From Nemertoderma westbladi (lineage: Eukaryota; Animalia; Xenacoelomorpha): DNA of 64,000 nt. The position numbers and the translations under genes are program-made. How positions within the stretch are numbered: the stretch's first letter is position 1; each line of letters opens with the position of its first letter. The DNA is taken from the NCBI GenBank assembly GCA_032718475.1, contig JAUCBJ010002949.1, positions 105,102 through 169,101 on the forward strand, written 5' to 3'. The notes beneath the pieces are model-generated. The model saw only the letters and a list, made by a program, of their open reading frames with translations, had not been told where the DNA came from and did not search any database. Shown here piece after piece: positions 10,306 to 44,523 of this stretch.

Positions 10306-10310
10306 GTGAC

Positions 10311-11497: not shown

Positions 11498-11536
11498 ATA
11501 ACGGATATTGCTTCTGTATTGCAGTAGGCAATAAAG
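11333..11536 (+). ncRNA. Conserved cis RNA structure at the U5/leader boundary, in place of a PBS
   Basis: Stems CCGAA/TTCGG and CCAGTCT/AGACTGG, and a loop TCGCGC complementary to terminal GCGCGA. All three change compensatorily in copy D. Confidence 0.7.
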
Positions 11537-11777
11537 CTGAAGTACCGGCAACCGGTACCCAGTAGGCCTGACTACCTAACCACCCGGACCGGTACCTACA
11601 GCAGTACAGGTACAGCAGTATTATTCGATTTTGATTATTATATACCAGTAGGTCTTAATAATTAATCGGGGACGCCTGGTTTTTATTGGGATTTTACTTA
11701 GGCCTATTTCTGTCAGTTTTATTTATTTGTAGGCTAATATTGAGCAGAAGGCATGTAAGCCTGCTCAGATTGTACAG

Positions 11778-12350
11778 ACAATTTGTAGGCTGGACTGTTG
11801 TCTGACTGTTGTTAAGTCTGAAGAGACTGTAGTGTGTGTAGAGCATATGTCCGAAAAAGTACTAGTTAGGAAAGTAGGGGCTGCCAGTGCTGTGAGGTGA
11901 ACCCCCTCGAAAGAATAAGTCGTACTACTCGGTTAGAACGCATACTAACTAACCATTTCGGAGTCTGCATATACTGTAGTGTATTTAGGCTTGATAGTAG
12001 TCTGTCAGCGTTTGGTCTGTACTTTGTTTGTGTAGTTTGTACGGGTAGCGTAATATTTCTTATTTAGATAATTTGTAGGCTGGATTTTGTCTGGCTGTTG
12101 TTAGGTCTTGAGAGATTTCGGTGTGTGTAGAGTGTATGTCCGATAAGGTGCCGGTTAGGAAAGTAGGGGCAGCCAGAGCTGTAAGGTAAATCCCCATCGA
12201 AAGAATAAGTCGTACTACTCGGTTAGAACGCATACTAACTAACCATTTCGGAGTCTGCATATACCATAGTTTGTTTGGGCTTGATAGTAGTCTGTCAGTA
12301 TTTGGTCTGCATTTTGTTTGAGTAGTCTGTACGCGTAGCGTAATATTTAT
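11778..12350 (+). repeat. ~290-bp tandem duplication in the leader
   Basis: Units start near 11778 and 12068 and share an identical ~60-bp core. Also duplicated in D (~51570-52140); single in A (~5600-5880). Confidence 0.85.
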
Positions 12351-13681
12351 TATTCAGAGTTTATGCTATTATTCGCAACATTCATATCCCCAAGTTTATT
12401 CCTACAGTAATTGTGCTTGTTATATATACCGTTATAGTTAAACTAACCCCGGTACTACATCAGGGCTGCTTGGCGTAGGTAAAGACTGGAGATTTTGTGC
12501 TTTGGTCACTCCGGCAGATACCGTGGTTCTTTTAGCTGTTCAAGTATTTTAACTACTAATTATTTGTTGTATAAGTACTTGTACCTAATTTAGGGTTTAG
12601 TGTACAGTACTTTCCGAAGGTGATTAGTGTGTAGGCAGTATATTTGTGTTGTAAAGTGGTTAATAGGCACGTTGGTTCTGGTAGACTGCGGTAATTAACT
12701 TCTAGGTAGGAACACTCCGTGATACATAACGTAGTACTTATAGCGATACGGCTATAAGTCGTCAGACGGTGGTATTTTCCTATCTGGACAACGCAGTATA
12801 TTTACTACTACTTATTATTTTCAAATACCGTAGTACCCTGTCCTTTGTAATAACCAGATATTCTAACCCTTTGTTAGGCTGGTTAGTAGACTTCTTGTAA
12901 AATTACCCTAAAAATTCGTACTTGTAAATTTTTTGTGTTTATTTAGAGATTGTAATCTCACCCCGAATTGTATGTAATTTGCAGTATTAAGTAACTTAGG
13001 TAAATTAGAATTATTTGTTTTAGAGTCTAACAAGTAGCACTTCACTGAGAGCGCACAGCTTCTGTTTAGTGACTTCCCCAGAAATAATAACATTTATTTC
13101 AAATATTGACAAAAACCCATTTTAACGGGTATATATATTATAAATCAACTCAAACTGATTTATAAAATAGTACGCCTGTCATACAACAATTAGGTCTAAA
13201 TATCAGTTGGACTACTGCTTAAATAACGGTAATAAAGTAAGTTAAAGTAACCAAGTAACCCTAAAATTCAGAAATTCAGTTATTCTAAAATAATTGACAT
13301 ACCGGTATTTACAATAGGCTTATTATATTTATTTCTATAAATTTTAGGCTGAAATTATACCGGTATTCTGTAATTAATTCTAGTTCATAATTATACTTAT
13401 ATATACTATAAGTGTAAGCTGCATACCGGTATTCACGATAGGCCTATTATATATTTATATATATTTGTGCTGAAATTACCTACCGGTATTCTGTGACAAA
13501 CCTAGTCTGTAATAATACTTATATATACTATAAGCATACCGGTATTCTAATATATTATATATATATCACGCTACACTGAGTAGCAGTATCGGTAATTAAT
13601 TACTAGGCTAACAGTGATACTGAATTACTAGACTTGCTTAAACTGTAATATAGCAGTAGGCATTCAACTGTGCAAACAAAT

Positions 13682-14767
13682 ATGTCTGACACAAAGCAAA
13701 ACCTGTCGGACAGTCTCCTAGATACAACCATCTGTGACCCAGACAGGAGTGTGGAACGAGTAGGACCGAAGTTCAACTCACCTCCTACTGTAAGAAAGAT
13801 CATCCCTCCCGTAGTAATATCAGACCCTAGGCTGGTCCAACATCGTAGGTCTATCATAGGCACTCGAGCTCAGGTCAAGCGGGACCAAGAAGCAGCAGAA
13901 CAGCAGCAACCCGTGAGCCAAGAACTTATTTATCAGCGGCCCGACAGCTCCAGTAATGCAGATACTGTAGAGCTGACACCCGAGCACGGCGCAAAGATGA
14001 CAGGTGCAGTTTATTCGGACCCCCTTCTCATCCTTCCTGCAGCCGTCCTCACTAGGTTATTGATTGCGGTGGAAGAACACCAGATCGATTGGGCGAGAAA
14101 TAAGCGATCCACTAAAGATAGTTATGCGGGATACACAAGGGAAGAACTGAAGTCTATTGTCGAGTCGCAATGGAACTTCCCCGGACCCGGACTCCCGTTT
14201 GATTTATCAGAAGCTGCCTGGGAAGACATACACAGGATGGGAGTAACCAAGGAAACCATCGATCCAGCTGTGTGGAAGAGGTCCGCAGCCGGATACGCAC
14301 AGGGATTCTTCAGCTCTATGGAGCGATTAAAAGAACAACTGTTTCAACAACCCCAAGGACCTCAAGAGCAGGGACAGCTGCTTTATCAAGTTAGAGAAAG
14401 AATTCTACGAATCAGGCTAATCTTATCGGCCTTTGAGGAGGCTTCTAAAAGAAGACAAGACACGTCGTTGCAAGTTGCCGTAAAGACTTGGTTTCAACGG
14501 GTGAGCCTCCAGGTTCAAGGAATGGCTCAGTGGAAAGCTCAGCTGGAGGAGCGCTCAACCCATGGAGAATCAACAGACGCTACTTTTTCCCAAGTGGAAA
14601 GTGAAGCGACGGCAGAGAAACCGCATAAGAGGGATGCCATTGACATCTATCTGTCAGACTATCAGCGCTTTTTAGGAGATGAAGAGTTGAGGAGAAGGTT
14701 AGATGGACTTAGCCCTAATAGTGAAGGAACCCAGCGATGTGGATATGAGAGCTGCGAACCAAGCTAG
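13682..14767 (+). CDS. Gag N-terminal part of copy B, frameshifted from the downstream ORF
   Basis: Homologous to the N-termini of 46109-50275 and 3099-4238. A net 17-nt deletion near 14732 relative to D breaks the frame. Confidence 0.85.
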   Translation: MSDTKQNLSDSLLDTTICDPDRSVERVGPKFNSPPTVRKIIPPVVISDPRLVQHRRSIIGTRAQVKRDQEAAEQQQPVSQELIYQRPDSSSNADTVELTPEHGAKMTGAVYSDPLLILPAAVLTRLLIAVEEHQIDWARNKRSTKDSYAGYTREELKSIVESQWNFPGPGLPFDLSEAAWEDIHRMGVTKETIDPAVWKRSAAGYAQGFFSSMERLKEQLFQQPQGPQEQGQLLYQVRERILRIRLILSAFEEASKRRQDTSLQVAVKTWFQRVSLQVQGMAQWKAQLEERSTHGESTDATFSQVESEATAEKPHKRDAIDIYLSDYQRFLGDEELRRRLDGLSPNSEGTQRCGYESCEPS

Positions 14768-17700
14768 ATTTGATGAACGCCTTCGCATCACTAGAGTCCA
14801 AGAAGAACAAGTGAAGAAAAAACGTGTAGAAGACAGAAAGGCAGCGGCAGTGGCAGCAGCAGTGGCAGCTGCAGAAGCAGAAAGAAAAGCGGCAGTAGCA
14901 GTGGCAGAGGCAGAGGCGGAAAGAAAAGCGGCAGCGGCAGAAGCGGAAAGAAAAGCGGCAGTAGCAGCGGCAGAGGCAGAGGCGGAAAGAAAAGCGGCAG
15001 CGGCAGATGCGGAAAGAAAAGCGGCAGTGGCAGCGGCCGAAGCGGAAAGAAAAGCGGCAGAGGCAGTGGCAGAAGCAGAACGGAGAGCGGCTGAAGAAAC
15101 CACCCAATTAGAATTGGAAAACATTCAGGAGAATCAAGACTGCATAAATAAACAGTTAACAGCTAGTAATATGCAGATGATGAATCGATCTACTCCCAAA
15201 AGACAGGGATATACATCATCTGAGGAAGGCGATACCACCGATACTGAAGGCAAAGGAAATAGATCTCGTCTAAGCAGACGTAGAAGAACATCCCACCATC
15301 AGAAATTGCCTGATTTGCCTCCAGCTGTTAGAAGGCAACTAAATAACACAAACTTAGGTAGTACAGAACCCACAGACCAAATAATTAAAATAGAAAGACT
15401 CCCTACTATAGTAGATGAGCCTGAAATAATTAGGCCTATTCCCGAAGCCACCCTTTCGGTGGTAGAGACACCTGTACTCCCTGAACCTACCTCTAAATTC
15501 CCTCTGCACAGCACTAAGCTACCTGTGCCCAGCAGAACAGCCCATGAGACAATCCATGTCCTGGACTCCGAGCGAAATATTAATGATTTGTCGCCCGTTG
15601 TCCCTCGTCCGCCCGCTACAACGTTGGCGGCTCCCGCTTCGGCGGTCGAGTGGGTGGATGAGAGACGACGGGGGATGGATCTCCTGCTCGGGCAGATGCA
15701 GGAGACCGTTCAGCAATTCAAGGGCACAGTAAGGGAAAGTAGGTTAGAGTTGCAAGAAGTGCAGCAAAGTATCGCGTTAGAACGCGATAAATTAGTAAAT
15801 ACACAAAAGGGTATACCACCACCCCCGGTAACAATGTGTCAACCTGTTAGGTCTGAAGTATTTCATGCGCAAGGTGTGGAGCCTACACGCATATATACTG
15901 CTAGCGAAGTAGAAACTCCTATAGTGAACCCTATTAAGGGTAATTATAGACCTGTTCATAATGATATTCCCTATAGACCTGATCATAATCCGAGAAATTT
16001 ATATACCGATAACTCGATATTAAATAACACGATGGCCCAAGAAAGTTTTACGCGTCAAATGGCTAGAACCGAAGCCCGGCAAGCGGTAAAGGTGGGAGAG
16101 ATCGTCAAGTTCAATGGAGATGAGATGAAATGGTTACCTTTTAATGAATATTACAAAGATAACATACAGAACTCTGTGCTATCTAATGGAGAGAAACTTA
16201 GATTCCTCATCGAGTGCTTGGAAGGATCTCCCAAGTTAATGGCGTTAAAGTTTATTGGACATCCAGATGGATTAAGACAAGTTTGGGATACACTAAACAT
16301 CAGGTATGGTAATAGGAATAACATAGCTAAATATTTGTATGCAAAATTAGTAGCGCCCCGAAAGTTCATTAGCAGCGGGATAATAGAGTTTTCCGATGAG
16401 ATTCAGGAGATCTGTAGACAATTAGATTGGTTAGGTAAGTCTCATGAATATCAGAGTTCTATGGTTATTGGAGCCGTGGCATCTACTTTACCGAAGGGTG
16501 GAGTAGGTACACGCTGGGATAAGAAAGTGTTGTACATGATGGAACAACAACGACGAGACCCTACCATGGCTGATCTCATGTCATTCTTAGATGGAGAAGT
16601 GAAATTACAGCTCCTAAAACAGTCCAGAGAGAAGACACCGGAAAACAAGGTAAGTGAGAAACCCGTTTCTAGGAGAAAGGTAACACCAGTGTGTTATACA
16701 GACGACGGCGAAAGCCAGACTTCTCAAGGAGAGGATAGCGGGAAAGACACTGAAAGATCTTATTATGTCAATAAAACGCCTAAAGAACAGGTAAGTAAAT
16801 TCAAGTCTCGAACCAATGACAGGAGAGAACAGGTAAGAAAAACTCCTCCTACGTCTCCTAAGAGAATTCAGGTGAGAAAGCCCGAAGAAAGAACGAGTGT
16901 GCACAATGTTATTCAAAATAAGGTAAGTAACATCAAACCGAAATTTGCGCTATGTGACGGGACCCACCGTTTGAATATGTGTGATGAATTCCTGAAGAAA
17001 TCATTAGCGGAGAGACGGGAAGTCATGTGGGATAAGCGGTTGTGTTATAATTGCCTCAGACAAGGACACCAACGGCGAACCTGTTACTCCGACACAAGGT
17101 GTGCAAAGTGCGGTGCGAAACATCATATCTTGATGCACACTGAATTCGAGCGAAACAGCCAGAGTCAGGTAAGTGAGTCCGAACTACATGTCCAATTCAG
17201 TGATGTGAACGACACTGACCAATATTCTGAGATGGAAGGATTCTATACGGACGAATTCTCCGACGAAAACGAATCCTGTTACCTGACAAATACCGCAGTG
17301 TATCGAGCACTTACGTATGAAAAGGACACCGACAGCGAGCTCCCCCTAACTACTTCTGACAGACAACCATCTTGGAAAGCACCAACTTCCAATGTAGGAA
17401 TCCGAGAATTTCCTGTAGTACAGTTAAGGGTCCACGGACCTACAAGGAGTTATATAGTGAACGCCCTCCTTGACTCCGGTAGTACAGGAACATTCATCGA
17501 CAAAGAACTAGCCGAAGACATCTTTGCTGGACAACCCAAGTTCCGAACTAAGCTAAACATGTCAGGAATTATGCAGGTTTGGAAATCTACCGTAATAGCG
17601 GATTATTATGTAGGCGCGTTGTCCACCCCCCAGGATGAACTAGGAGAACACAGCATAAGGTCAGTAAAAATGGTAGCGATAAAGAACTTCGCTACCAGCC

Positions 17701-18374
17701 AAGTGGAACCTTATAACTGGGATGAGGACGATTTCACCCAGCAGCTTGAAATACCTAGATTCAACACCGATTACCCTGGAGTCCAAATACTCATCGGTCA
17801 AAATGCGCATGAAGCGCTCGAGACATTGGAGAAACGGTCTGCTCAACCGCAACCACTACAAGCTTATGTGGGAAGAACTAGAGTGGGTTGGTACTTTACT
17901 GGCCCTTCCCGTAGAACTCTCATGGAAAGATTACCGAAAGATCAGGTATATCAAGTAAGAGAATGGGAAGATGAGAGCAGTGAGTTAGACGATCCAACTG
18001 AGGGAAGACCATACTCCTCAGATAATGACGACATCAACTCCAATGTAGATCAATGGAGACATTGCCCCGAGACGATTAATCTAGCCGACATCGCCTCCAG
18101 AGGAGCAACTCCTCAAGAACTGACAGATACTCCAGACTGGTTAGGTGAACCCGACTTCCTAAGTAAAGAAGATGAATGGCCTCCCCACCTTAACCCGGCT
18201 GAGATTAGACAGGCCAAGGGAGCGGAGAAAGTAACACAACAACTCAAGCGCCCAGCTGGTCGTTTATATTTACTAGAAAGAGACCGAAAACTGTCCGGAA
18301 ACTATGGAAGGCAAGATACTCTTCCTACGACCACTTCCCTAATCCGACAATTATCTAGGGACTCCATAACGTAA
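14703..18374 (+). CDS. BEL/Pao Gag-protease with remnants of RNase H and integrase
   Basis: Capsid-like KFNGDEMKWLPF...EKLRFL, knuckles CYNCLRQGHQRRTC and CAKCGAKHHILMH, protease ALLDSGS, RNase H end QWRHCPETINLADIASRG, integrase tail KRPAGRLYLLE. No YxDD RT and no DDE core. Confidence 0.92.
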   Translation: MDLALIVKEPSDVDMRAANQARFDERLRITRVQEEQVKKKRVEDRKAAAVAAAVAAAEAERKAAVAVAEAEAERKAAAAEAERKAAVAAAEAEAERKAAAADAERKAAVAAAEAERKAAEAVAEAERRAAEETTQLELENIQENQDCINKQLTASNMQMMNRSTPKRQGYTSSEEGDTTDTEGKGNRSRLSRRRRTSHHQKLPDLPPAVRRQLNNTNLGSTEPTDQIIKIERLPTIVDEPEIIRPIPEATLSVVETPVLPEPTSKFPLHSTKLPVPSRTAHETIHVLDSERNINDLSPVVPRPPATTLAAPASAVEWVDERRRGMDLLLGQMQETVQQFKGTVRESRLELQEVQQSIALERDKLVNTQKGIPPPPVTMCQPVRSEVFHAQGVEPTRIYTASEVETPIVNPIKGNYRPVHNDIPYRPDHNPRNLYTDNSILNNTMAQESFTRQMARTEARQAVKVGEIVKFNGDEMKWLPFNEYYKDNIQNSVLSNGEKLRFLIECLEGSPKLMALKFIGHPDGLRQVWDTLNIRYGNRNNIAKYLYAKLVAPRKFISSGIIEFSDEIQEICRQLDWLGKSHEYQSSMVIGAVASTLPKGGVGTRWDKKVLYMMEQQRRDPTMADLMSFLDGEVKLQLLKQSREKTPENKVSEKPVSRRKVTPVCYTDDGESQTSQGEDSGKDTERSYYVNKTPKEQVSKFKSRTNDRREQVRKTPPTSPKRIQVRKPEERTSVHNVIQNKVSNIKPKFALCDGTHRLNMCDEFLKKSLAERREVMWDKRLCYNCLRQGHQRRTCYSDTRCAKCGAKHHILMHTEFERNSQSQVSESELHVQFSDVNDTDQYSEMEGFYTDEFSDENESCYLTNTAVYRALTYEKDTDSELPLTTSDRQPSWKAPTSNVGIREFPVVQLRVHGPTRSYIVNALLDSGSTGTFIDKELAEDIFAGQPKFRTKLNMSGIMQVWKSTVIADYYVGALSTPQDELGEHSIRSVKMVAIKNFATSQVEPYNWDEDDFTQQLEIPRFNTDYPGVQILIGQNAHEALETLEKRSAQPQPLQAYVGRTRVGWYFTGPSRRTLMERLPKDQVYQVREWEDESSELDDPTEGRPYSSDNDDINSNVDQWRHCPETINLADIASRGATPQELTDTPDWLGEPDFLSKEDEWPPHLNPAEIRQAKGAEKVTQQLKRPAGRLYLLERDRKLSGNYGRQDTLPTTTSLIRQLSRDSIT

Positions 18375-18928
18375 CAACATATGGAGTGGGTGTGTGACTA
18401 TATTATTTTATATTTATATTTATTTTTATTATTTTATATTATGTATGTATTATTATGTAATTTTATTATAATCGTTTTCTTTAATTTTATTTAGTCAAAT
18501 GTTATTTAGCGATTATTTAGTAGATTAGTGCAATATATTAGTGTTTATTACTTAATTACTTATATATTATATTTAGTGCGAAGGCGAGAAATAATTCTTT
18601 TTCTCTTTCCTTACTGTCCGTATCATATTATAAATACGCGACTACAGTAAGATGAAATATCCGTACTTATTAAAGTACAATAAAGCTCCTACTATATTTA
18701 AGTATTATTGGTAAGCAGAGTATTAGGAATGCAAAATTCAGATCCTTGTGTCTCGGCTAAACCAAGCTCTGGGTAGACCTTGGAAACGACTTGCCTCTTC
18801 CTCACTGACATTGCTTCGTGCGATATTGCTCTCATACCGTATATTAAATAATACATATAGTAGCGTGATGTCCTTTTAACAGTAGCGTATAACGCAAAAT
18901 AAATCTGTTAAACCCTTTGACCATCTGT

Positions 18929-19191
18929 AATTCTAGTCGATTAAGATATCGCGGCACCCACCGATATACTTGAAAGACAAATTCTAGAATCAGTGGTTAA
19001 CGTCCCCAGACAAGTTCTGGAATAAACTGGTGCCCATCCTAAATATTAATTACTAATATTTACAAAATCTGTCAAATTCTAGATCCTTTAAAATTCTAGT
19101 CGATTAAGATATCGTAGCACTTACCGATACTCTTAAAAAGACAAAATTACTAGAATCGAGGATCCCAGTCCCCAGACACGTTCTGGAATAA
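18929..19191 (+). repeat. Duplicated hairpin-forming unit in the ORF1-ORF2 spacer
   Basis: TTCTAGTCGATTAAGATATCG...CGATA..CTT(G/A)A..GAC...CTAGAA occurs twice ~165 bp apart, each followed by CCAGA...TCTGG. Conserved in D at ~45300-45560. Confidence 0.75.
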
Positions 19192-19824
19192 AATTACGTC
19201 TATTTAACATTAAATAATAAAATTTATGGGAATAAATTTAAATTCATATATTTCAATGAATTTAATAAATTGTCATTTTATACAATTTATAACATTCCCA
19301 AAATTCCATTAATTAATAGATCATGGGAGCGGAGATTCACTCTATTAAGTGTATTTGTGTGCGAGAATCTCCAATATATAGTCAATAGCCGATAAAATTC
19401 ATAAAATCATATATAGAGAGGATATTGACAATTAAAGCATTACTATTAAATAGCATCCCAGATCTGTATGCATGAGAATTACCCTAATTCTACCGCTAGC
19501 TTTCCATAATGTCACCATGGCAACAACCACGCTAGAATTAGAAGTGAGTTAAAAGAACAATAGAAGGCTTGCTCCATTGAATAGCATAGGGAATAAATAG
19601 CATACTGCTAGTATCCAAGGATACATAATAAATAAAGTGACATTCTGGAAGGTACTGACTAACGGACAAATGGCCCGAATGTGTACAGTTTATGGCAGTT
19701 GTGTTGAATTTGTGCGTTCATAGGTGAATGTTACTGCTAAAGTGTGTTTACAGTAGCTAGTCGCAATTGTGAAAGTAGCCCTAACTCTCCAGAAAGAACC
19801 TGAAGTACATCTAAGCCTTTGGGA

Positions 19825-19971
19825 CGGACAGTGGAGTGACTTGTGCCGGTTATCGTTGTCGTTGTGTAGCTACATCGTTGGCGAAAGCACAGCGACGACG
19901 GTACATCGGCGCTGAGGATCTTGCACTGTCCGGGGGCAAAAGAGGGGTAGGCAGCGACGCCCGCTAGCCTA
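19825..19971 (+). ncRNA. Conserved structured RNA element upstream of ORF2 (IRES candidate)
   Basis: Nested stems with compensatory and wobble-preserving changes among copies B, C and D; ends ~40 nt before the ORF2 ATG. Confidence 0.75.
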
Positions 19972-20012
19972 ATATATAAACTCATTATAATATTGATAAA
20001 CTCATAGCAGAT

Positions 20013-23000
20013 ATGACTGAGTTGATAGAAGATGATCTTGGTATCAGGGAGCGATATACTCTACCTTTACAAGCGTTTGTCGATATCTTGATACGCGGCG
20101 ACGCTGGTCCAACCACTACGGAGGATGATGGTCGTTATATCGAACCACCAATGTCACCGGAGCAACTTACGCGTGAATTGGATTATAGAAAGTTCACCGC
20201 TCGCTATACGCATCGTAATGGTACGTATATGGACTTCTTAACTACTGGCCATCCTATCGATTTACACGATACGGACGATGTAGACACTGAAAGGGAAATG
20301 GTTTTATTTAAATATCATACCCAGCGGAGTCGGAACGATAAACCGAGAATAGAACACGAGAACTCTATTCGAAACAAACTCGAAAGGGAAGACGTTGAAG
20401 AGCCGGATAAACGCCGCGACTTTAACGATTATCTGGAATTCCTGAGAGAGACATATCTCAATATTGCCAGCCAACAAAATCTCGAAACTAGATATCCTCA
20501 AGGTATACATCATGACCCTATGATAGAACTCAAACGACTCTATTTCACTATAATGTATCTTACCGCCGATCGACCGCTACCTGTCGTCCCAGATAGCTTC
20601 GAACAGATGGAGGAATATTGTAAAACTGGAGAACGATCACCCGCGTTTCCCCTGCAGGACGTGTGTCTTTGGTATTACTGCGACGAGTGCCCTAGACCCA
20701 ATCAGCAAACGGAAAGACATAAACATCCGCGGAGACGTTGCGCTAAACACAGTTTTACACAATATACTTATGGGAGTTTCGAGCGAAACCTGTTCAACAT
20801 ATCCCCTACGGTTGCTCGGCTCGAACGATCCTTGAACAAACCAATGATCAGAGTTCCGGAATACTCGGTCAGACCTCCTCATTCCTCAGTTAGACCTCAG
20901 ACTCTTGATCCTAATAGTATCACGGATCCTCCCGAACTGTATTCGCTGTTCAAAGATCTAGTGTTACCCGAACAGTTGATTGGTGGCACTCCGGTAGTAG
21001 GCTCGCTAGATATTCGCCAACCCTACCGAGCTGGATTGGGACGCAGTCATCTAATATCGCCGTTTAACCCACACAACCGTCCCGGCTTCACCTCGATACA
21101 ACCCGTTACGGAAGTCGAAGAGAGCGTCGTACGAAACGCGTTAGACGCTATTCGGCAGAAAATCGGAAAGGGAACTTACGATTGTTTGGAGAAACGTAAA
21201 TTGCAACAACAAGTCCAAGCGGTGAAGGAATTAGCTTTACCCCAGTTCGATAGAGAAATACAAAATCTCGAGGAGGACATCGAACGTGGACGAACCTACT
21301 CTTTACAAGAGTTCCTAGATGAGCGTCTACAACAACAAGCGGAGGAAAATCAGCTCGAGGAGAGACATATAGAACTAGATGAGAGAGAAGAAGCAGCTTT
21401 AGCTCAACCCGAAGCTCAAATCCTTATGACGGATCTCTACTCTAAAACCATCCTTCATCCCTCGATGGTTCCCCATTTCGGAGACAAACTCTTTGCGACG
21501 ATACAACCCCAACCGGTTGATATCAACCTAAGATCTAGAGATCTTATCGCTGACGCTCCCATGTTGCAACGTCCACCCATCGAAGCCGCTCATGTAGATG
21601 GTATACTCGTTGAACCTCCGGACAATAGAGCGGATCTTGTCCGTCGCATGGTACACGATGTAAACATACGCGCTAGACCTTTACCGGACTCGTTTTATGG
21701 GATCAAAGATCACCCTTATTACGTTAACCTAACACAATATTACATGGTAAAACCGGAAGATCCTACACATAGTCTGAGGTTTCTGCCACTCATAAATCCT
21801 CTCGATCTTGTCGAACTCGAACAACTGCATAAACATCTGGATCAGTTGGTTAAAATAAACTCATTTCGAAAACCATACAATGTTTCCAGAATAGAGAAAG
21901 AAACAATACCTCCGTATAATCTTGATGGATTCATCAAAACTCGTTTAGTACACTGGAATCTTGACGTGTTATTCGTGGAGGAAAGAATACAACGATATGG
22001 AGATGTGGAAACATATACCACACAATATTTAAAGTATAGAGACCTACCTAATGCTAGCAAATGCGCTACCTTGTGGCATCCTGTGGGAATGACCCTCGAA
22101 AACGCCACTAAAGAGTGGAATGAGACTCTTAACGTTATCGAGATGTATGGAGTTGTCACCTATGACAACGAAGGTAGCGTTCCGGTTGGAGAACTGGGAA
22201 CTACGCGGATGATACACATACGAGGACTCGCTGGTTCTACCCACGTATTTACTCGAGCGTGTTCCGATGTGATTGATTATTCTTTTGAAACTCTTACTGA
22301 GACACAAAAGAGACTCCGACATGGACAATTCGAGCTCGCGCAGCGTTACGTCGCCGACACCGAGCGCAAACCGGCCATGGGTATCGATGGATCGATGTTA
22401 CCCCAGCCCGTGCTCGAGATGTTGTTTAACGAAAGAATCCTTAAAATCGGCTCAGCTGTTTATGGAGATCTAAAAAACGACTTTCGGAATATGGAAAACA
22501 TTCCATATCCTTTCGTGGATACTCAGCTGATTGCTCCCTGGGCAGAAGGCCGAGGTTTCTTCCGCACTATGTATGCCAATACACCCAGCGGCATTACTAA
22601 AGTACAACGAACCTCCATCGGACATCTTGCCTTTCAAGAATACGGATGGAATTTCAAGGTTGGAAATCCTATAAATTACCAACAAGTATATGGAGATCAT
22701 TATTCTCATTTATACTTTGATGGACCATTGACCGCACCTGGCGCCGTGTATAGCTTTATGAGTGTTCCACTTCGTCCCTCCTTAGCTATATACACGATCT
22801 TTGAAAATGCAGCACTTGCCGGTTGGCTAGCCGATGTGTGCAGTCGTACCATACGCGCCCATCCCTTAATACTTGGAACCAAACTCGCCAAGTTAGATGA
22901 ACACAATAAATTCCTCCGCTTCGAATGTTTCAGGCGCTTTCTGACTCCGTTCCGTAACGTTGATAGTCAGTTCAAGGACTGCGCTCTGACCAAACTCAGC

Positions 23001-24266
23001 CTAAGAGACTCAGCTGCGGAGAAGCTAAATAGTGCGGGATTTGCTCTCTTTCAGGACGTTTGTATACAGAACTTACATTCATCTGTTATACAAAGACCCC
23101 GAATACCCACGGGTTATTCTGTCGTGGAAGTTCAGACAGTGGGTCCGCTTGCAGAGACAGCTGCACCTACCTCAGCTATGCAATTGGAAGACGAACCAAT
23201 CTGCTTAGAGTCTGAAGCGATCCAGCCTACAGCGCCCCGGAGCAGCGATAACGATTACGTCTTGGAGTGGTATCAAGGTCCACAATGTCTCACCGCATAC
23301 GATTATCGACACGCCAACTATGTTTCTCGAAAACGTTGTCGATTATGCGCATTGAGAGACCATTTCACCCCTATGGACTCAGACGTACCCTGCTCCTATT
23401 TCCACGAACAACCGATGATGGAGATCTATTGTGCGTATTGCAGACTTAATAACTCGCATATTTTTGCAGTCTGCCCCCAATTTATGACCCAATGTCACCA
23501 CTGTCAACTTAAAGGACATGCCAGTTATAATTGCCCCTTTAACCGCGATTTAGAAAGCGTAGATGAGATGATTACCTTGCGCTACATACGAGCTTGGGAA
23601 GCGAACGCGGATTTACATTGTGAGGCCCGCCATCGCTACTACCCTGGACGGTCTTACGAGGGAGTTTACGCGTTCCATCCTTATTTATTCGCGTCTGTGG
23701 AACAAAAAACACGCACACCGAGTTACGAACTAATGAAGCGTGTTGGTGAGTGTATTTCCACCAAATTTGTTCGAAAATATCTTAGGAACGTCAATCCTAA
23801 CGATATTACTTCATATCATTTGATCAATTTCATCCGTCAAGACCCTGAGTATGGCGATTTATTTATCAACTCGCACCCTGAGTTACAGGAAGTATCTCGA
23901 CGGCCCTACGAATATCGAGCCCGAGAACGCGAGCTGGAAAGAACCATTAAACCAAGGAAGTTTCTCACCACTCACGGTCCGCCTACTGCCATTGTCCAGA
24001 TGACCCGTCAAGGACCCGTAGGAGCTGCTGTCCTAAGACGCGCCCTAAAAGCCGTTAGACCTCGCTCCACTGAAGTTGATATCAATCAACCAGGTACCTC
24101 GACCGGCGGATACACCGATCGTAATCCTAAACCTTCTGATGCAATTGTATTGCACCCTTCACCCAGGAGTTACAGCCCTCCTAGTAAAGTGGCTCGCCCC
24201 AAAGAGAAAAGGACTCTTGCTAGCCTCAAAAAACTGCGTAAACGCCATCCGCATAAGAAAGACTAA
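20013..24266 (+). CDS. ORF2, 1417 aa: DEDDy-type 3'-5' exonuclease domain, zinc knuckles, basic C-terminus
   Basis: ExoI VVTYDNEG (D718/E720), LPQPVLEMLFNERILKIGSAVYGDL (ExoII D819), FVDTQLIA, SIGHLAFQEYG, ExoIII PLRPSLAIYTIFE (Y927/E931); knuckles CAYCRLNNSHIFAVC and CHHCQLKGHASYNC; no signal peptide or TM segment. Confidence 0.85.
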   Translation: MTELIEDDLGIRERYTLPLQAFVDILIRGDAGPTTTEDDGRYIEPPMSPEQLTRELDYRKFTARYTHRNGTYMDFLTTGHPIDLHDTDDVDTEREMVLFKYHTQRSRNDKPRIEHENSIRNKLEREDVEEPDKRRDFNDYLEFLRETYLNIASQQNLETRYPQGIHHDPMIELKRLYFTIMYLTADRPLPVVPDSFEQMEEYCKTGERSPAFPLQDVCLWYYCDECPRPNQQTERHKHPRRRCAKHSFTQYTYGSFERNLFNISPTVARLERSLNKPMIRVPEYSVRPPHSSVRPQTLDPNSITDPPELYSLFKDLVLPEQLIGGTPVVGSLDIRQPYRAGLGRSHLISPFNPHNRPGFTSIQPVTEVEESVVRNALDAIRQKIGKGTYDCLEKRKLQQQVQAVKELALPQFDREIQNLEEDIERGRTYSLQEFLDERLQQQAEENQLEERHIELDEREEAALAQPEAQILMTDLYSKTILHPSMVPHFGDKLFATIQPQPVDINLRSRDLIADAPMLQRPPIEAAHVDGILVEPPDNRADLVRRMVHDVNIRARPLPDSFYGIKDHPYYVNLTQYYMVKPEDPTHSLRFLPLINPLDLVELEQLHKHLDQLVKINSFRKPYNVSRIEKETIPPYNLDGFIKTRLVHWNLDVLFVEERIQRYGDVETYTTQYLKYRDLPNASKCATLWHPVGMTLENATKEWNETLNVIEMYGVVTYDNEGSVPVGELGTTRMIHIRGLAGSTHVFTRACSDVIDYSFETLTETQKRLRHGQFELAQRYVADTERKPAMGIDGSMLPQPVLEMLFNERILKIGSAVYGDLKNDFRNMENIPYPFVDTQLIAPWAEGRGFFRTMYANTPSGITKVQRTSIGHLAFQEYGWNFKVGNPINYQQVYGDHYSHLYFDGPLTAPGAVYSFMSVPLRPSLAIYTIFENAALAGWLADVCSRTIRAHPLILGTKLAKLDEHNKFLRFECFRRFLTPFRNVDSQFKDCALTKLSLRDSAAEKLNSAGFALFQDVCIQNLHSSVIQRPRIPTGYSVVEVQTVGPLAETAAPTSAMQLEDEPICLESEAIQPTAPRSSDNDYVLEWYQGPQCLTAYDYRHANYVSRKRCRLCALRDHFTPMDSDVPCSYFHEQPMMEIYCAYCRLNNSHIFAVCPQFMTQCHHCQLKGHASYNCPFNRDLESVDEMITLRYIRAWEANADLHCEARHRYYPGRSYEGVYAFHPYLFASVEQKTRTPSYELMKRVGECISTKFVRKYLRNVNPNDITSYHLINFIRQDPEYGDLFINSHPELQEVSRRPYEYRARERELERTIKPRKFLTTHGPPTAIVQMTRQGPVGAAVLRRALKAVRPRSTEVDINQPGTSTGGYTDRNPKPSDAIVLHPSPRSYSPPSKVARPKEKRTLASLKKLRKRHPHKKD

Positions 24267-24336
24267 CTGTTTAGAGTATTTTTATATTTTAGAAACTGTG
24301 ATTTGTTATATTTTATAGACTTAAATCCCATTTTCT

Positions 24337-24344
24337 GGGAGCGG
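24337..24344 (+). other. Polypurine tract-like sequence GGGAGCGG
   Basis: Directly abuts the 3' LTR in B, C (39722-39729) and D (43125-43132). Confidence 0.75.
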
Positions 24345-25530
24345 TGTAAAGGCTTTTGCGTAATTAGCCGGTTATTTTCCCCGTAAAGTACTCTGTAGTT
24401 GGTTTAACCGGCATAAAAGGCCGTGTCCTTACTGTACTGTTGTTTTAGAGGACATAAAAGCCATTTCTTCTGTATGTGTACTTTAGCGGACATAATTCGC
24501 AATTCTATGACGCAATACGCCAAATCCTCTGAAACAGTGTAGCTACCATGACGACGGCTAACAGCTGATGCTGTACACGTGGAGCTTGTTCTTTGTTCTC
24601 TGTTCCTTCTTTGTTCGGTCGACCAATCAGAGCGTTTTTTGCCTCTGTGTTGGAGATTGTATATAGAAACTCTTGGAGTTGAGTCAGTATGTGATTTTGT
24701 CCACAGCCTACAACACCGGCTTTGGAACCTCCGTGTTTCAGTCTTTAGCCCAACATTAGTAGGCTTAATTATAGAACGTATATCCGTTATCATATCAATC
24801 CATACATAACATATCATATCTCATTGATCACATATCTGCATTCATAACCATTCATACCTTAAACTTTGTACTGCTATTTACTGTCGGTTATTCATTATAT
24901 TTGTTAATGGAATATTATATTTGGAATACTGATAAATAATCAGACACCCCAATCTTCTTGATATACTAAAGGTTAGAGAGACCGGTTACATATAACGATT
25001 GCGACTTACATTAAGTGGTTTGAAGTGAATCTAATGCTATTTTATAGGCCCTACATGTATTGTCTGTTGTTCTCTTTATATGTGACTAAAATTAGTGAAG
25101 GTCGGCAGATCAGTGTGCAGCATTGTGCAGTATTGTGTATGATTGTGACTGATAACAAAGCATCTCCTAAAGAATGCGCCATATACGTGAATCTATGGCC
25201 ATCCCGTTGTGTCTAGTTTAAGTCATAACTCTGTTTACATATTTAGAGCGCCATGTCCTAAAGGAACTGTTAATATTTCCCGAAAGTGAATAATATTTGT
25301 CAGAGATTATATATTACGATCAGTCGAATAATACATTAGGCCTACCCCGCAATACGGTTAGGCTTCCGAATCCAGTCTCCCGGGTATATCCAGCGGGTGA
25401 ATGATCGCGCATAGACTGGCTTCGGCTAATGTAGTGTATCAAATACTTGTCATAGGCTAAAGACGATCTATCATCTAAAAGACATCCCAATTTGGCAGGT
25501 TAAACTGCTAAAGGTCTGAAAGCGCGAACA
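24345..25530 (+). repeat. 3' LTR of copy B
   Basis: Direct repeat of 10311-11497, followed by TSD GTGAC. Confidence 0.97.
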
Positions 25531-26551
25531 GTGACTGTCGCTATAAGGCTTGGGCCTGAAAGGCCGATATAATAAAGATCTGCATTTAAAGCTTGTGGAT
25601 ATTGATAATGTCAGATATATGAGTATCGGTAATACAGCACAATCAGTATTGCACAATGACAGCAGTAACGTCGACGGTTTTAACCATTTAACTTCTACTT
25701 GAATACTAGCCAACTGAATCATAATTAATACTGAATAAAAGTTATATGGAGATTGCATCGAAGATTACACATATTGCCTACTGTATCGACCTACCAATAG
25801 ATGCATGCTAATTTATGGTGTACCGCCCCACTATTGGTTGGTTTACTTTCCTTGGCCACACCCTATCTTTCCTGGCCCTGTGCTGTCTTCCCCCTGAGAT
25901 GTATTGGTATCTCTCTCCAGCTGGCAGTGTATATTGCCTTATTCCCTCTGGTATGCAATATTGGGTTGGACAATATTGCATATCTAATCGTAATTCGTAT
26001 ATCACGATTTCCCCATTTTCTCAATGGGTGGTGCACTGGATTGGATCCGCTAACAAGATGTCCCATATTCACTTTACCACACCTAGAGGCAGACTGGTTA
26101 ACTGTTGTCGATATACACTTTTCGCTGTAATTACTGTAATTGATGTAATATTGATCTAATCTGGTTTGAGAATATTATTGAAAATTGTTTTTGACATTTT
26201 TTTGTTCCGTCAATACTGATAGTTCATTTGTATGATATATGTATTGCGTATGAATATCTAACCCTGGCGTGTGTATGTAGGCCTACATTACTATCCTACA
26301 TGATTGATTTAACATTATTGCGGTTACTTTATTGAGGTTATTTAATTTGCAATTAAACGATGTGTTCACTCTCTTTAATTATCATAAAGTTCTACAAATA
26401 TATATTTCAGTACAAATACAACAATTTTTTACCGGTAACTTTAAAGAGTTATGAACAGACTTGAACTCTCTGTACCTTAGTTTATATTTGTTGTGTATTG
26501 TGTTAATGAATAACGTTTCTTATTGGATGAATACTAAGGCTTTTGGTTATA

Positions 26552-27021: not shown

Positions 27022-29815
27022 TTTGGTTATATTGGTTTGTTGTGGAGGGAAATTAGTTTAGTTTAGTCAAAGTATTTCAGTTCTTAGTTAATTCCGTTTA
27101 CCGATAGCAATGGCTTGAGAAAGGAACCAAGGTTTTTGAAGTATTGCAATAATTTTGTTGTTGCGTCATCCTTATCCTGTTAATATTAATAATAATATAA
27201 ATTCATTAGGAAGTGCTTCTCTGAATAGGAACACTACTACTGTAACAACATTACATTATACCCCATGCGGTGTCTCTCTAAGAAATCTCTAAGAGATCTC
27301 TCTTAAGAAATAAGAAAATCAATTTGGTAATTTACAACGTAATAATAACGTTACTGCAAAGGCAGAAAATTTCAGATCAATAGACAGACAATGATGATCT
27401 ACTGTGTATACCTACTACCAACACACACCAGAATTACAACCCTCATATATTATGTATCTTCTATACAATTTATCATATAATATGTAGGCTACCATAGCAT
27501 AGGCGCATGCACTCTGTGTTTCTTTTCTTCGCCAGCCAAGTTTGAATTTTGCTTAGTTTGTCTATAGTTCGTTTACTAGTTTTCTATTTTTATTATTATT
27601 TTATTTATTATTTTTTATTATATTATTTTATATTAATTTATATATTTTTATTATTATATATATTTATATAGCTCATTAAAGTTGTCGAGTTTAAAATTTG
27701 TAGGCAAAAGTCAATAAAACCCAAAATTTGATTTTTTAGAGACTTTCAGACAGCATCATCACTGGCTTTCAATATTTTTTACCTATTTCATCTAGAGCAG
27801 ATTTTTATCAAGATTCCAAATATGAAAACCGTTTAGCCAAATCCATACACTTTTTTCCATACACTTTTCTGTTTTAAAATCTGTCTTACTTTTCGATGTA
27901 TGGCTGTCTGTCCGTTTTACTGCCAATCAATATGGCTGACTGTCCGTCAATATGTCTCCAAAACAAAGGCAAACATAAAATCTGTCTTAAAAAAATTAAT
28001 ATATGGGTTTTCTTGGTCCGTGACTTCATTTCTGATATCAGTATTCAAATTTGGCATCGTCTTTTCTGTCTGTATGCCTGTCAGTCTGTCCGTCAAAATA
28101 TATCCGTCAGCCAGACTGCCAAACAGACAATTTGGGGCCATCAAATCTGCGATAACTAATACGTAACTCCCTATAACAAAATTTTTAGCTAGATGGTGTG
28201 CCCTTTTCTTATATTTAACGGACAGATTGTCAGATAGTCAGAAAGACCGACAGACAGACTAACTAGATTTTATTAAAAATGAAATCTGACCTCAGAAATT
28301 AAACTGGAAATGCTAAATAAACTGGAAACATCAATTTTAGTGCCATTATGGTGCCCTGATCGAAAAGAACATGTAGGAAAATTTTCAAACTGTTCAATTT
28401 TCCTTTGGTTTGGTAATTCTGATTGTAAAGTCCAGTAGTATACCGCCTACCGAATCCTTGTAACGAAATACCTTACTGTAGAATTCAGCAGTGTATACGG
28501 GTTCGTACAGTACCTGACAAGAAATCCCAGTCCAGGGTGTCTAAATAAACAGATACCAAGTACACAAGCTACTACTGGCGAGGAACGGGGCCTGATGTCT
28601 CTTCTAATACTTGGGCGAATAAATTGCACGGGCTAACTAGACAAACAGGATGCCCGGCCTCTAACCGGTGAGGCAGATGTACAGTTTACAGATACAGACC
28701 AAACTCACGGGAAAACAATTCCCGCGTAGCGAATCCTAACTATTGCTAAAGGACCTAAATACTGTAAACTTGCCGCGGTGTGATTTATATGGGTATAATA
28801 CGAGCTAGCGGGTCAACGACACTAGCGTAAGAAACAATACTGCTGACAGGAAAAGGCAGTCAAAAGGTTGCCTGATCAAACAAATACCAAATACCTCTAC
28901 AAATAATAATAACCTATCTGTAAACTTAGTAAATCTCAAGACGCGTGTGTGTGTGTTACGATAAAACAATTTTGGTGTACCGCTGTTAGACTAGGTTTTG
29001 GTGATTTTAACAAAATAACAATACCGGGCGCTAGCTACTTGAATAAGCTAGTCGCACGCTGTAGGCGCAATACTTACAAACTGACGTCAAAAGGGCTCTC
29101 TCCTCCTATATTCACAACTCAGTCGGGCAATTACGGTGTTAGTAACTACACCCGGATCAGCACTAATACCAAATTCTGATTGTGAGATAAGGAAATAGGG
29201 TGTTAATTTACTACCGTACGTCTAGCTGATCTGGTATGTAATTTGATTCTAAAATTTTGTTACCGTGGTGGTCTGCAGTAAATACCTATCAGTACGTGGC
29301 AAGGGCGCGGTAGATTGTTAGTAAACCTCCCTCAGCCAAAATGCGTGTCGGTAGCAGAAAGCTGCCTCTTGCCTGAGCAAATACTTTGGACTCAGACAGG
29401 TCAGTCAAACTGCGAGGCCTTCAGAGCTAACCAGTACTGTACCACTTGTACGGTAAATCACCAAATTATAGAGCGTGTTATTCGCATCTAAGTGTACTTG
29501 CACATACTGACAAACAGCATCATCTCGCACCTGTGACCCGGGTTTTTTCCTGTCTGAATCTGAGGTATTTGGTCCAAAATTTTACGGCGTCCCAGGATGG
29601 CGTGCTTCACCCTGATCTAAGGATCTTACGGTGGGCAAAGGCGTCAAATAAAGTCTTACCTCCTCTGACGTGGGCGCGATCAGGCAAAAGGGCATGCTTC
29701 CAAATGGAAGTGGGCGAAGATAGTGCAGGTTCCGTTATGCGTCATGGACATCCCTTCCCCTTGCGTTTGATTTGGTATGTGCAGCCAGTTGGTGGCCAGC
29801 CAGTAATGCATCCAG

Positions 29816-30243
29816 GTGCAGATAATAGATTTACGTTCTTATAATCAAAGCCATCTAATGTTGGCCAAAGTCTGAAACTTCTACAGAAGCACAGAATAAT
29901 TTCTAAGCCGATGTTCTGAGGCTCAGAAAGGTAAACAAAAACCGTAATGCATTGCGCGGTTTTCCGTAGGCCTCTGTACAAGATAAAATGAAAATCGCTC
30001 TGATTGGCCGAGCGAGCTGAACAAAGAGATGTGCCACGTTTACAGTAAATCAGCTGACAGATTTCGTCATCTGAGTTCCAGTCTTTTAGAGTATTAGGCG
30101 CATTGCGGCAGAAAATGGCTTGTTATGTCCGCTAAAACACCTACATGGCATATTGCGGAAAAAATGGCTTGTTATGTCCTCTAAAACATCTACACGGTAT
30201 ATTGCGGAGAAAATGACTTGTTATATCCGCAAAAGCTTTTACA
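29816..30243 (-). repeat. Partial LTR (U3 segment) nearly identical to the start of LTR A
   Basis: Matches 6888-7321 including the TGTAAAAGC terminus; homology stops at 29816. Confidence 0.88.
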
Positions 30244-32505
30244 GGCTATTTGTTGTTCTAGGTTATCGGTTCTTAACGCTAGAGACTTGTTTTCATGTGA
30301 CAAGGAATCATTTCTTTATAACAAAGAATGAATGATTTCTCATGAATCGTCATTGTCCAGGGGTCTGGGTTGTCTGACTTCTGGCACACGACTGTGAGTG
30401 TTATGTAGGTTGGGGTCTAATGGGGGTGCATAGGCCTCTGAAGGTGTAATAAATCACCTTGGGGGAACACCTCAATTGGAGTGCCTGGCGCAAACCTGAC
30501 ACCACCCTTCTTGGGGTAAGACTTTCCCAGCCCGTTATTGGGGACTGGGGCCTGTCTGCCGGATGACAACGGCGTTCCTGGCCCCGGATGCCGGGTCCCC
30601 ACTACCACTGGTGCAATCGTGGCCAAGTGGCTCGATCCGGGAGCCAGGTGCCTGCCATCCGGTCGGTTTTGTTGGCTGTAATAAATCGTTGAGCGAGGAT
30701 TTATCTCCGCTTTTGTAATTGGGGATATGTCAGTGCTGAATGATACCCTTTCGTCCTTTGCCTTAGATAAAGTGCTAGACAGGTAGTTAGGCTTGGGGTG
30801 TTCTGGGCAACCCATACGAGGAATATGGTTCGAGATGGGGCCTATCAGTGGTGTAATAGCTCTAGCGTGGTAAGGGGTTGCTACTGGGTCAATCGGCTCG
30901 GCTGATACACCACACGATAGGGGTGCTACCATCTGGGACGGCTTCCGTTCCTGCAGATCTATATAGATCTTGAACCCAGGATCGTTTGGCTCGTCTTCCT
31001 CCTGTAACCTACCCAGGGGGGGGGGGGCGCGAATCCAGCAGTCTCGGATGGTTTAAATCAGTCGGCTCTGGGGGTATCCTGTCTCTATTATATGGAGGCA
31101 GGTCCGGCAGTGCCACTCTAACAGCTCTCATTCGTCTGCCCCGAGAGTAGCTGCCACCCTCACTAGCGTCGGTGGAGTTTCCTTCATCCAACGAAGCATA
31201 AGTCCCTCTATTCGGTCTATCTCATCCTCGGTTTGAACCTAACCTTTCCTTGTGCTGATTTTCACTTAATCTCTTTAGCGCTATTTGGTTTTGCAAAGCT
31301 GATTCCTGCTGATCAGCTTCCAACTGTAATCTATTACATTGTTGAGTTGCATTTAATTGCAATTCCATTTCTAATAATTCCTTATCAGCTGCGTGCCCTT
31401 CTGCCTGTGCTTGCATGTCACGCTCAGCTTCTATTCCTTCTAGAACTGCCATTTATTCAGGGCTAGAGGGGGCTAAACCCTTTAACTTCCTACGTAGTTC
31501 AGCCTCTCCTACTATAGCTATGTAATGCTGTAGGTGCCATGATATGGCGTCCATACCTTCATTTTCGTCGGAATCCTCCGAGTCTGTGCGCAAGTCTCGC
31601 AGTGCTACTGTACCAGAACAAGCCACATCCATACCCGGGGTGATGGTCGGCCCATGTAGCCTTTCAAGGGCGAGTGCCTTCCCGGCTATCACAGCTACCT
31701 ATGCTAACTGCCTGCTGACTATGGCAGATAATTCGGCGTCGTGATGTCTTCTAGACACTTCCCAGAACGCGCATAAAACTAGTCGGATTCTGCAAACTAG
31801 TTCTTTGATTTTAAAGTATACAGCTGGGTTAGTTCTAGTGTCAGGCTGTACTGTCTGCAGCTCATGCGTAAGGGTTCCAATGCGCTGATTGAATTCGGCT
31901 ACTTGACCATAAACCAACGCAGATAGTTCTCCCGTGCTGCATGGGACCTGGGGAACCTTTAGCTTATACAGGTCCGCCCATGCCATGCCATTAAACCGGA
32001 AGAACCTATGAAGCTCCAGGTGGTTGTAATGTAAGCTTATTAAATGGTGCAATTCCTCCCCATAAACTTCCTGTTCAACAGCTACAGCTCCAGTTGCTAT
32101 TCTTTCCTGGTAACTGTCGATCTCCTCCAACAGGCGAGCTAGTCTAGCCTGTGGGTGAACAGTGACAGTCTCGTCCACAATATTCTGAGAAAGGGTGTTG
32201 TCGCTCAGGGGATGTAATTCCTCATTGCTGTTAGGTGAGGGGGCGATCATAATGGGGGATGTGTTCATACTGGAAATATGTTCACAGTGATGGCGAACTT
32301 ACTCCAACTTGTACAGGGCTAGGTTGGCGTTATTCACAATCCCTCCAGTAAACTGCCTAGTTCTTATACGGGACCTGTCCCAAGATTTCTTGCTAGGGAC
32401 GGGTGGCGCAACTGGGTTAATCGTAGCGGGAATTTCAGTAATAGGGACAGTTATAGCTGGTGGACGTCAAGCAAATGGCTCGGTCTCAGTGCCCGATCTT
32501 GACAT
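30244..32505 (-). pseudogene. Decayed gag N-terminus of a distantly related BEL/Pao element
   Basis: RIRLVLCAFWEVSRR and DAISWHLQHYIAIVGEAELRRKLKGLAPSS align with RIRLILSAFEEASKR and DAIDIYLSDYQRFIGDEELRRRLSGLRPNS of copies A/B/D; many stops. Confidence 0.75.
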
Positions 32506-39721: not shown

Positions 39722-39798
39722 CCGCTCCCAGAAAATGGGATTTAAGTTTATAAAATATAAAAATCACAGTTTCTCAAATACAAAAATACTCTAAACTA

Positions 39799-44481: not shown

Positions 44482-44523
44482 ATTTGCTATCTGAGTTTGT
44501 TAATATCGAAATGAGTTTATGTT

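Follow-up and report, generated by a model that had tools for sequence, protein, structure and literature searches.

Bdelloid rotifers harbour retrotransposons, among them Juno, Vesta and the Athena/Terminon elements, in which a third open reading frame (ORF3) codes for a predicted exonuclease of the DEDDy type (PMC5408684; also PMC6431247, with a mention in PMC6338049). What such genes do in long terminal repeat (LTR) elements has been a question ever since they were reported from rotifers, as genes for a predicted activity. A different peculiarity is that of Tf1, which primes reverse transcription with its own first 11 bases, released by RNase H (PMC7175516), within a 'pretzel' structure made of three duplexes (10.1101/2022.12.06.519325). 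According to the description of BEL/Pao retrotransposons, the Belpaoviridae of the International Committee on Taxonomy of Viruses (ICTV), these are 4.2-10 kb long, have a primer site of 18 nt for tRNA-Arg or tRNA-Gly, and any third gene is env-like (PMC8742986). We analysed 64,000 nucleotides of the genome of Nemertoderma westbladi (assembly GCA_032718475.1, contig JAUCBJ010002949.1, positions 105,102 to 169,101), hereafter the window, with coordinates counted from its first base. It contains a BEL/Pao-type element that associates a Tf1-like self-priming signature with an ORF3 predicted to encode a DEDDy-type exonuclease.

What appears to be new is the presence of the self-primer signature and the DEDDy reading frame in an element of the BEL/Pao type; what was known is the existence of DEDDy ORF3s in rotifer elements. 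A literature search found no paper on an exonuclease gene in BEL/Pao elements, most subscription papers and Repbase being outside its scope, so that absence from print is not established; the words 'exonuclease' and 'primer' are absent from the accessible text of a paper devoted to BEL/Pao (PMC3118150). With the same limit, the accessible literature on self-priming names Tf1/sushi, Tcn1 and plant copia lineages, not BEL/Pao, and a search on priming in the rotifer elements returned nothing relevant. Such a signature is at odds with the tRNA priming that the ICTV gives for BEL/Pao, and it suggests that a third superfamily of LTR elements primes itself. The element further offers an intact and strongly selected example of the exonuclease gene, along with a well-defined candidate for its substrate: 11 bp of RNA duplex bearing a 3' tail.

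A young BEL/Pao-type element

Four related copies lie in the window, labelled B (1-7321, minus strand), C (10311-25530, plus), D (41853-53860, minus) and E (38582-54583, minus). Judged by its sequence features, copy C is a young element of the BEL/Pao type that lacks reverse transcriptase (RT). Its youth is witnessed by the near-identity of its two LTRs (10311-11497, TG...CA, 1187 bp, and 24345-25530; 6 mismatches over 1186 aligned bases), by a 5-bp target duplication, GTGAC, at 10306-10310 and 25531-25535, and by a polypurine tract, TGGGAGCGG (24336-24344), which directly adjoins the 3' LTR in copies C, D and E alike. The gag-protease region (13682-18374) is split into two frames (13682-14767 and 14703-18374) by a shift near 14720, a place where copies B and D are uninterrupted. 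Within Gag, the Pfam domain DUF1759, which we take to be a marker of BEL/Pao Gag, is matched above its cut-off at E 6e-11 and 1.6e-12, while the matches to aspartyl protease and zinc knuckles are weak. LTRs, polypurine tract, 5-bp duplications (in C and D) and a BEL-type Gag with protease are thus present together. At its end the region keeps short remnants that resemble RNase H and the end of integrase, identified by what we presume to be BEL motifs; the cores of RT and integrase are absent from copy C. Even so, the element is 15,220 bp long.

The first-pass annotation of this DNA had described the element as RT-less. This is so for copies C and D, where the joint of the pol deletion is identical; copy B is different at this point and extends past the edge of the window, so that an autonomous, RT-bearing partner may exist. 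Copy B comprises a 5' LTR (6149-7321) and gag-protease before it continues beyond the window edge. Copy D is flanked by the duplication TCACG and its LTRs differ at 3 of 1247 aligned bases. Copy E, which has its 3' LTR at 38582-39721, an ORF3 remnant and no 5' LTR within the window, is interrupted by the inserted copy D. The family is highly repeated, with 38,381 contigs aligned to the element in one sequencing run. The members of the Belpaoviridae resemble it in LTRs of 0.2-1.2 kb, a polypurine tract, a DUF1759 Gag with knuckles and a protease (PMC8742986, PMC3118150). By contrast, none of tRNA priming, a size of 4.2-10 kb and an env-like third gene holds here (PMC8742986).

A candidate self-primer

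In the three copies that retain a 5' end (B, C and D), no TGG-type tRNA site follows the 5' LTR, judging by the bases of the site itself. In each of them an 11-mer at a homologous position inside the LTR pairs without a mismatch with the 11 bases immediately 3' of that LTR. In copy C the putative primer-binding site (11498-11508) comes directly after the terminal CA of the LTR, has no TGG and is not tRNA-like, and it is perfectly complementary to the candidate self-primer at 10747-10757; the corresponding pairs are 53381-53371 with 52588-52578 in copy D and 6904-6894 with 6148-6138 in copy B, both on the minus strand. A distance of 740-782 nt separates the two partners. All 33 base pairs across the three copies are of the Watson-Crick type, although 5 of the 11 positions vary, both sides having changed in a compensatory way, as would be expected if the site were recopied from the primer at each cycle. 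Complementarity stops at the very next base on either flank, and shuffled LTRs yield a comparable match in only 5, 4 and 4 of 5000 trials. The 11-mer of copy E ends in C.

Predicted folding of the RNA favours a start at the 11-mer or within 3-30 nt of it. The 11-mer duplex is predicted at 0.74-0.93 when the RNA begins at the 11-mer and at about zero when it begins at least 60 nt upstream, in each of the three copies, with copy C losing the predicted duplex already at a start of -6. A local hairpin is predicted just after the primer site in all three, and the end of the LTR is predicted to pair with an inner stretch of the LTR, the partner in copy D differing from that in B and C. Further pairing beyond the 11-mer, on its upstream side, was envisaged and rejected: the bases that follow the primer site fold upon themselves instead. 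No tRNA gene and no Rfam family was detected within the 64-kb window, which leaves an element-encoded tRNA primer unsupported.

The LTR also carries candidate signals for transcription and splicing. A CCAAT box (10590-10594, plus strand), in a block conserved in all four aligned LTRs, lies 157 nt before the 11-mer and may belong to the promoter. A TATA/TCAGT promoter in the LTR of copy C was rejected as the start site, as it is not conserved in B, D and E. A candidate splice donor, AG/GTWAG (10939-10944, plus strand), is found at the same place in the four LTRs, as a single match in each, upstream of the primer site; the motif ATAG(C/T)AG, just before the starts of both gag and ORF3, would provide acceptors. 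ORF3 may therefore be expressed from a spliced message.

Taken together, these features suggest a Tf1-like self-priming signature in a BEL/Pao-type element, priming itself being a candidate reading. The likeness to Tf1 and the sushi elements consists in an 11-nt LTR segment, its complement after the 5' LTR and the lack of a tRNA match (PMC7175516, PMC4600332, PMC6317226, 10.1101/2022.12.06.519325). Tf1 and sushi are chromoviruses of the Ty3/gypsy group; here the Gag is BEL-type, the gap is 740-782 nt, a three-duplex arrangement is not clear and an exonuclease gene is added. At most, then, the element works like Tf1; by its BEL-type Gag it is not a member of the Tf1/sushi group.

A side observation concerns a 96% copy of the LTR of B, at 29813-30243 on the minus strand, which breaks off about 8 bases past the 11-mer. 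The break point may be due to chance, or it may be what is left of priming or integration that was aborted.

ORF3, a conserved protein with a predicted exonuclease domain

ORF3 of copy C (20013-24266, plus strand) is open from ATG to stop and codes for 1417 amino acids. As announced in the first-pass annotation, it is intact and sits between pol, here a remnant, and the 3' LTR: the gag-protease frame ends at 18374, and the ORF3 stop is 78 bases short of the 3' LTR (24345). The other features listed at that stage are largely found again. A cluster of cysteines and histidines near the N-terminus (aa 203-246, 20619-20750) keeps five of its six residues in copy E (C203, C223, C226, C243 and H246, with C218 lost); in Pfam it matches only CEBP_ZZ, at E 0.019, and an Atlas search returned no match for it. 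Two of the C-terminal CCHC knuckles are well formed (C1140-C1154 and C1161-C1174); a third Cys/His group (1109-1131) is irregular. In this block (aa 1109-1174, 23337-23534), C1109, C1112, C1127, H1131, C1140, C1143, H1149 and C1154, as well as C1161, C1164, H1169 and C1174, are the same in copy D. Its Pfam match, zf-CCHC_3, is below cut-off (E 0.0024), and profile matches point to Air2 and HIV nucleocapsid at E 0.001-0.01. There is no transmembrane helix in ORF3, the highest hydropathy mean over 19 residues being 1.19, and the C-terminal tail (24195-24263) is basic, which may make it a nuclear signal.

ORF3 is under strong purifying selection, the exonuclease part included. Compared with the other copies of the window, it has ratios of nonsynonymous to synonymous substitution rates (dN/dS) of 0.086 (aa 53-595, 539 codons), 0.082, 0.160, 0.108 and 0.138, that is, within 0.08-0.16 in all five comparisons, for synonymous divergences (dS) of 0.36-0.68. 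The ratios are higher for gag-protease, at 0.24 and 0.19. The claim that the peptides are conserved between copies despite many silent changes is thus borne out, but not for the exonuclease, since both other copies with an ORF3 (D and E) have lost this domain through internal deletions (one of aa 597-1266, the other of about aa 126-1058) and copy C alone retains it within the window. For this part we turned to family variants in two sequencing runs, where 3279 and 32 contigs cover 22110-22850. Among the best 40 of 137 variants, 31 are silent and 9 are replacements, for an expected silent fraction of 28% (p 8e-11), and D718, E720, D819, Y927 and E931 are unchanged. Over the whole reading frame, 37 of the 40 variants listed, out of 1722, fall in ORF3, 21 silent and 16 replacements, many of those listed being sites at which copy C departs from most of its relatives.

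The predicted RNase D-like, DEDDy-type 3'-5' exonuclease domain spans aa 700-945 (22110-22847, plus strand), with D718, E720, D819, Y927 and E931 as its putative catalytic residues, all five where the first reading had put them, and an FVDTQ motif at aa 836-840. By itself the loose pattern D-x-E...D...YxxxD/E is no evidence, since 461 of 500 shuffled sequences carry it; a strict version had no match in ORF3 and was dropped. More is gained from homology. A full HMMER search of 1.84 billion proteins returned a single homolog, P0004 (E 3.8e-5), a protein of 648 aa in which an exonuclease-like domain is followed by knuckles, in the same order as in ORF3. The two are about 30% identical and have in common the DxE, the ExoII aspartate, DTQ, YxxxE and the downstream knuckles. 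D718 and E720 align to D62 and E64 of P0004, which align in turn to the DTE of a bacterial profile, and the YxxxE of P0004 aligns to the YAAAD of the bacterial set; the placement of D718/E720 and Y927/E931 depends on the alignment to P0004 alone. D819 and FVDTQ, for their part, align directly to RNase D. Over this ExoII region the NCBIfam RNase D model TIGR01388 matches ORF3 at E 0.002-0.004, far below cut-off, and RNase D of Escherichia coli aligns at E 6e-5. A custom profile of 71 bacterial PF01612 domains gives ORF3 4.9 bits, against 2.4 for the best of 300 shuffles, and matches P0004 from ExoI through the DT motif at E 1.9e-6. In the Atlas search, 25 of 30 matches of ORF3 are PF01612 clusters, with a score of 0.93 and the family carried by 50-60% of the cluster members; the top match is an unnamed cluster (0.94), and 4-10 of 100 shuffled proteins also reach at least 0.9.

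Other comparisons were less favourable or silent. The MAFFT alignment of ORF3 with P0004 misplaces ExoI. A PDB sequence search with the domain of P0004, or with the alignment of the two proteins, found no exonuclease, and PHROGs yielded an exonuclease family at E 0.3 only. Word-index searches for homologs found none for aa 640-1000 of ORF3, and two others returned P0004 itself only. No relative of ORF3 was found in metagenome contigs, viral contigs, prokaryote genomes or phages, collections that are poor in animal DNA. An hhalign value of 4.8e-8 was not counted: its two-row profile had been cut from an alignment made jointly with the target set.

Other points weigh against the assignment. When ORF3 is aligned to the bacterial set without the help of P0004, D718/E720 and Y927/E931 do not fall on ExoI and ExoIII. 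ExoIII reads Y-x3-E in both ORF3 and P0004, not the canonical Y-x3-D. Pfam and PDB sequence searches of ORF3 detect no exonuclease. Predicted models are of low confidence, with a predicted local distance difference test score (pLDDT) of 30.5 from the single sequence and 31.4 from the two-row alignment. Weighing all this, we consider it highly probable that ORF3 carries a genuine, selected domain of the DEDDy type, and are less confident that this domain catalyses. The DEDDy, DnaQ-like assignment of the first-pass annotation therefore survives through concordant weak matches and P0004, with two amendments: ExoIII has E and not D, and the nearest named relatives are of the RNase D type (PF01612).

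The precedent then invoked, DEDDy reading frames in LTR elements of bdelloid rotifers, is a real one (PMC5408684). There as here, a separate RNase D-like frame lies between pol and the 3' LTR, has no transmembrane helix and codes for an activity that is predicted. The differences reside in the host element, here BEL/Pao-type and RT-less; in the protein, whose 1417 aa here include knuckles and a Cys/His cluster; in the motif, D-E-D-Y-E here and DEED in rotifers (PMC5408684); and in the strong selection seen here between subfamilies. These differences are ones of description; the sequences of the Juno, Vesta and Athena ORF3s did not turn up in the homology searches. A similar layout is found in the RNase D of Trypanosoma brucei (TbRND), a DEDD exonuclease followed by a zinc-finger block, which trims RNA 3' tails and whose zinc fingers raise both binding and cleavage (PMC7797062). 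TbRND differs in being a cellular enzyme that trims guide RNAs, and ORF3 has no direct match to its PDB entries, so that the analogy is one of layout only.

Possible functions of ORF3

Two functions had been put forward at first pass, processing of an RNA 3' end or primer, and anti-silencing. Both are candidate roles; the former has gained the 11-nt self-priming signature, the latter is backed by analogy only. The reading that we place first, while holding it only tentatively, is that the ORF3 enzyme trims the 3' end of the element's own RNA primer. The complementarity of the LTR 11-mer to the 11 bases after the 5' LTR, ending exactly at the terminal CA, is observed. The transcript would begin at, or shortly before, the 11-mer and fold back onto the primer site as in Tf1. 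An endonuclease, probably the RNase H of an RT supplied by a partner, would then cut the repeat region somewhere beyond base 11; the exact place would matter little, since the 3' end of the RNA carries the repeat once more. An exonuclease makes no internal cuts in RNA, but once the repeat region has been cut anywhere, it could shorten the tail as far as the duplex. Trimming of RNA 3' ends is what enzymes of the RNase D type do, TbRND among them, whose zinc-finger block occupies the same position (PMC7797062). In this scheme the ORF3 knuckles would bind the single-stranded 3' tail, and trimming would leave at the duplex a 3'-OH for RT. Translated from a spliced message without the primer site, ORF3 would act in trans, in which case copies devoid of RT or of the exonuclease would still be mobile. 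That a BEL/Pao lineage exchanged the host tRNA primer and its maturation enzymes for an 11-nt self-primer in the LTR and a dedicated exonuclease of a variant D-E-D-Y-E type, a two-part priming system independent of tRNA and available in trans to copies without RT or exonuclease, is a wider proposal, which we regard as unlikely.

Several points weigh against primer trimming. Enzyme and primer are connected by their residence in the same element, and by nothing more. In Tf1, RNase H frees the primer by cutting between its bases 11 and 12, and no added exonuclease is described in the accessible text (PMC7175516). Exonuclease genes accompany unrelated retroelements, Terminons included (PMC5408684, PMC6431247), which would fit a general benefit, and the basic tail of ORF3 would place the protein in the nucleus rather than in the particle. 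Copy D transposed recently without the exonuclease domain. As to the primer, the predicted pairing in copy C vanishes once the folded leader is 100 bases long instead of 40-60, and the three-duplex structure of Tf1 is not clearly formed in this element.

A counter-defence nuclease, acting on small RNAs, their precursors or U-rich decay tails and relieving silencing for the whole family, comes next; we deem it somewhat improbable. DEDD exonucleases have been captured repeatedly by unrelated retroelements (PMC5408684), TbRND, with its similar layout, favours U-rich tails (PMC7797062), and the basic tail would suit such a protein. The joint of the ORF3 deletion of copy D (20380 to 23186) recurs in two of four sequencing runs, which indicates that copies without the exonuclease have been amplified, as would be the case for a shared good in this highly repeated family. 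However, nothing specific to the element speaks for this role, and uniformly low dN/dS ratios, below those of Gag, would be atypical of a protein in an arms race, or of a shared good; the stronger constraint on ORF3 would better fit a core role in replication than a fast-evolving counter-defence. In rotifers, according to the accessible text, the exonuclease gene has no clear link with copy number, and small RNAs cover the ORF3s too (PMC5408684).

It is decidedly less probable that ORF3 keeps an exonuclease fold with little or no catalysis and works as an RNA-binding regulator, for example in the export, splicing or packaging of unspliced RNA. An ExoIII motif ending in E in both known members would be accounted for in this way, as would the conservation, equal to that of the domain, of the approximately 1150 of 1417 residues outside it, together with the knuckles, the Cys/His cluster and the basic tail. 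The candidate splice sites imply both spliced and unspliced RNAs, and for Maelstrom and EXD1, both of them DEDD derivatives, a lack of activity combined with retained RNA binding is described (PMC5408684). Yet four acidic positions and the tyrosine are kept between two proteins only about 30% identical, and the catalytic residues do not change among the best 40 of 137 family variants.

We think it quite improbable that ORF3 has DNA as its substrate, taking off mismatched ends or 3' flaps at the strand transfers of reverse transcription and thereby helping to keep an unusually long element intact. The length of the element, 15,220 bp without RT and integrase, for a family of 4.2-10 kb (PMC8742986), would call for such care; the giant Terminons also have DEDDy reading frames (PMC6431247), and PF01612 has members that act on DNA. 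But the closest named matches are to RNase D, and a protein encoded outside the Gag-Pol frame is not assured of being packaged with RT. Finally, it is very improbable that ORF3 is a conserved protein with some other fold, in which the exonuclease pattern arose by chance: the lack of any match above a curated cut-off, the low pLDDT (30.5 and 31.4), and the behaviour of shuffled sequences, both for the loose motif (461 of 500) and for Atlas scores of at least 0.9 (4-10 of 100), would agree with it, but NCBIfam, the custom profile, Atlas and the homolog, though not wholly independent, concur on both the family and the ExoII region.

Other sequences in the window

Between gag-protease and ORF3, copy C has a non-coding spacer of 1.6 kb (18375-20012), in which the longest frame has 91 codons; it contains a second polypurine-like word at 19324 and an internal duplication of 164 bp. 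Copies C and D differ there by 7.6%, whereas dS in ORF3 is 0.36-0.68. More broadly, over 18100-19900, which includes the end of the pol remnant, C and D are 90-96% identical, nearby synonymous sites being 0.36-0.68 apart, which suggests either a constraint at the RNA level or recent recombination. The 2.1-kb leader of C and D contains a tandem duplication of about 290 bp (11776-12358 and 51553-52136), and that of copy C has 14 upstream ATGs.

Other features are scattered around the four copies. A distant relative of the N-terminal region of Gag (31462-32253, minus strand; 25% identity, E 2e-8) is part of an older, related element, and the stretches 7442-8391 and 33964-34890 are 69% alike. Four frames (35221-36048, 37895-38527, 55757-56455 and 58698-59207) resemble by eye the ends of non-LTR retrotransposon reading frames, with no match in Pfam. 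At 54584-54949, on the minus strand and adjoining the start of the spacer similarity of copy E (54583), there is a fragment resembling GDSL/SGNH esterases (Pfam Lipase_GDSL_2, which it matches below cut-off at E 4e-5); upstream of it lies a SAP-like piece (55544-55801, minus strand; E 0.0024). In rotifer elements GDSL and DEDDy frames occur together, sometimes within a single ORF. The fragment may be the remnant of the ORF1 of a long interspersed nuclear element (LINE), or else a second captured enzyme. Further on, 56900-61549 has a foldback-like structure, where inverted arms of about 1.1 kb, made of 163-bp repeats, flank LINE-like remnants and a frame of 250 aa (59599-60351) for which Pfam gave no match. 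The window ends in a tandem satellite (63246-64000) with a period of about 94/188 bases.

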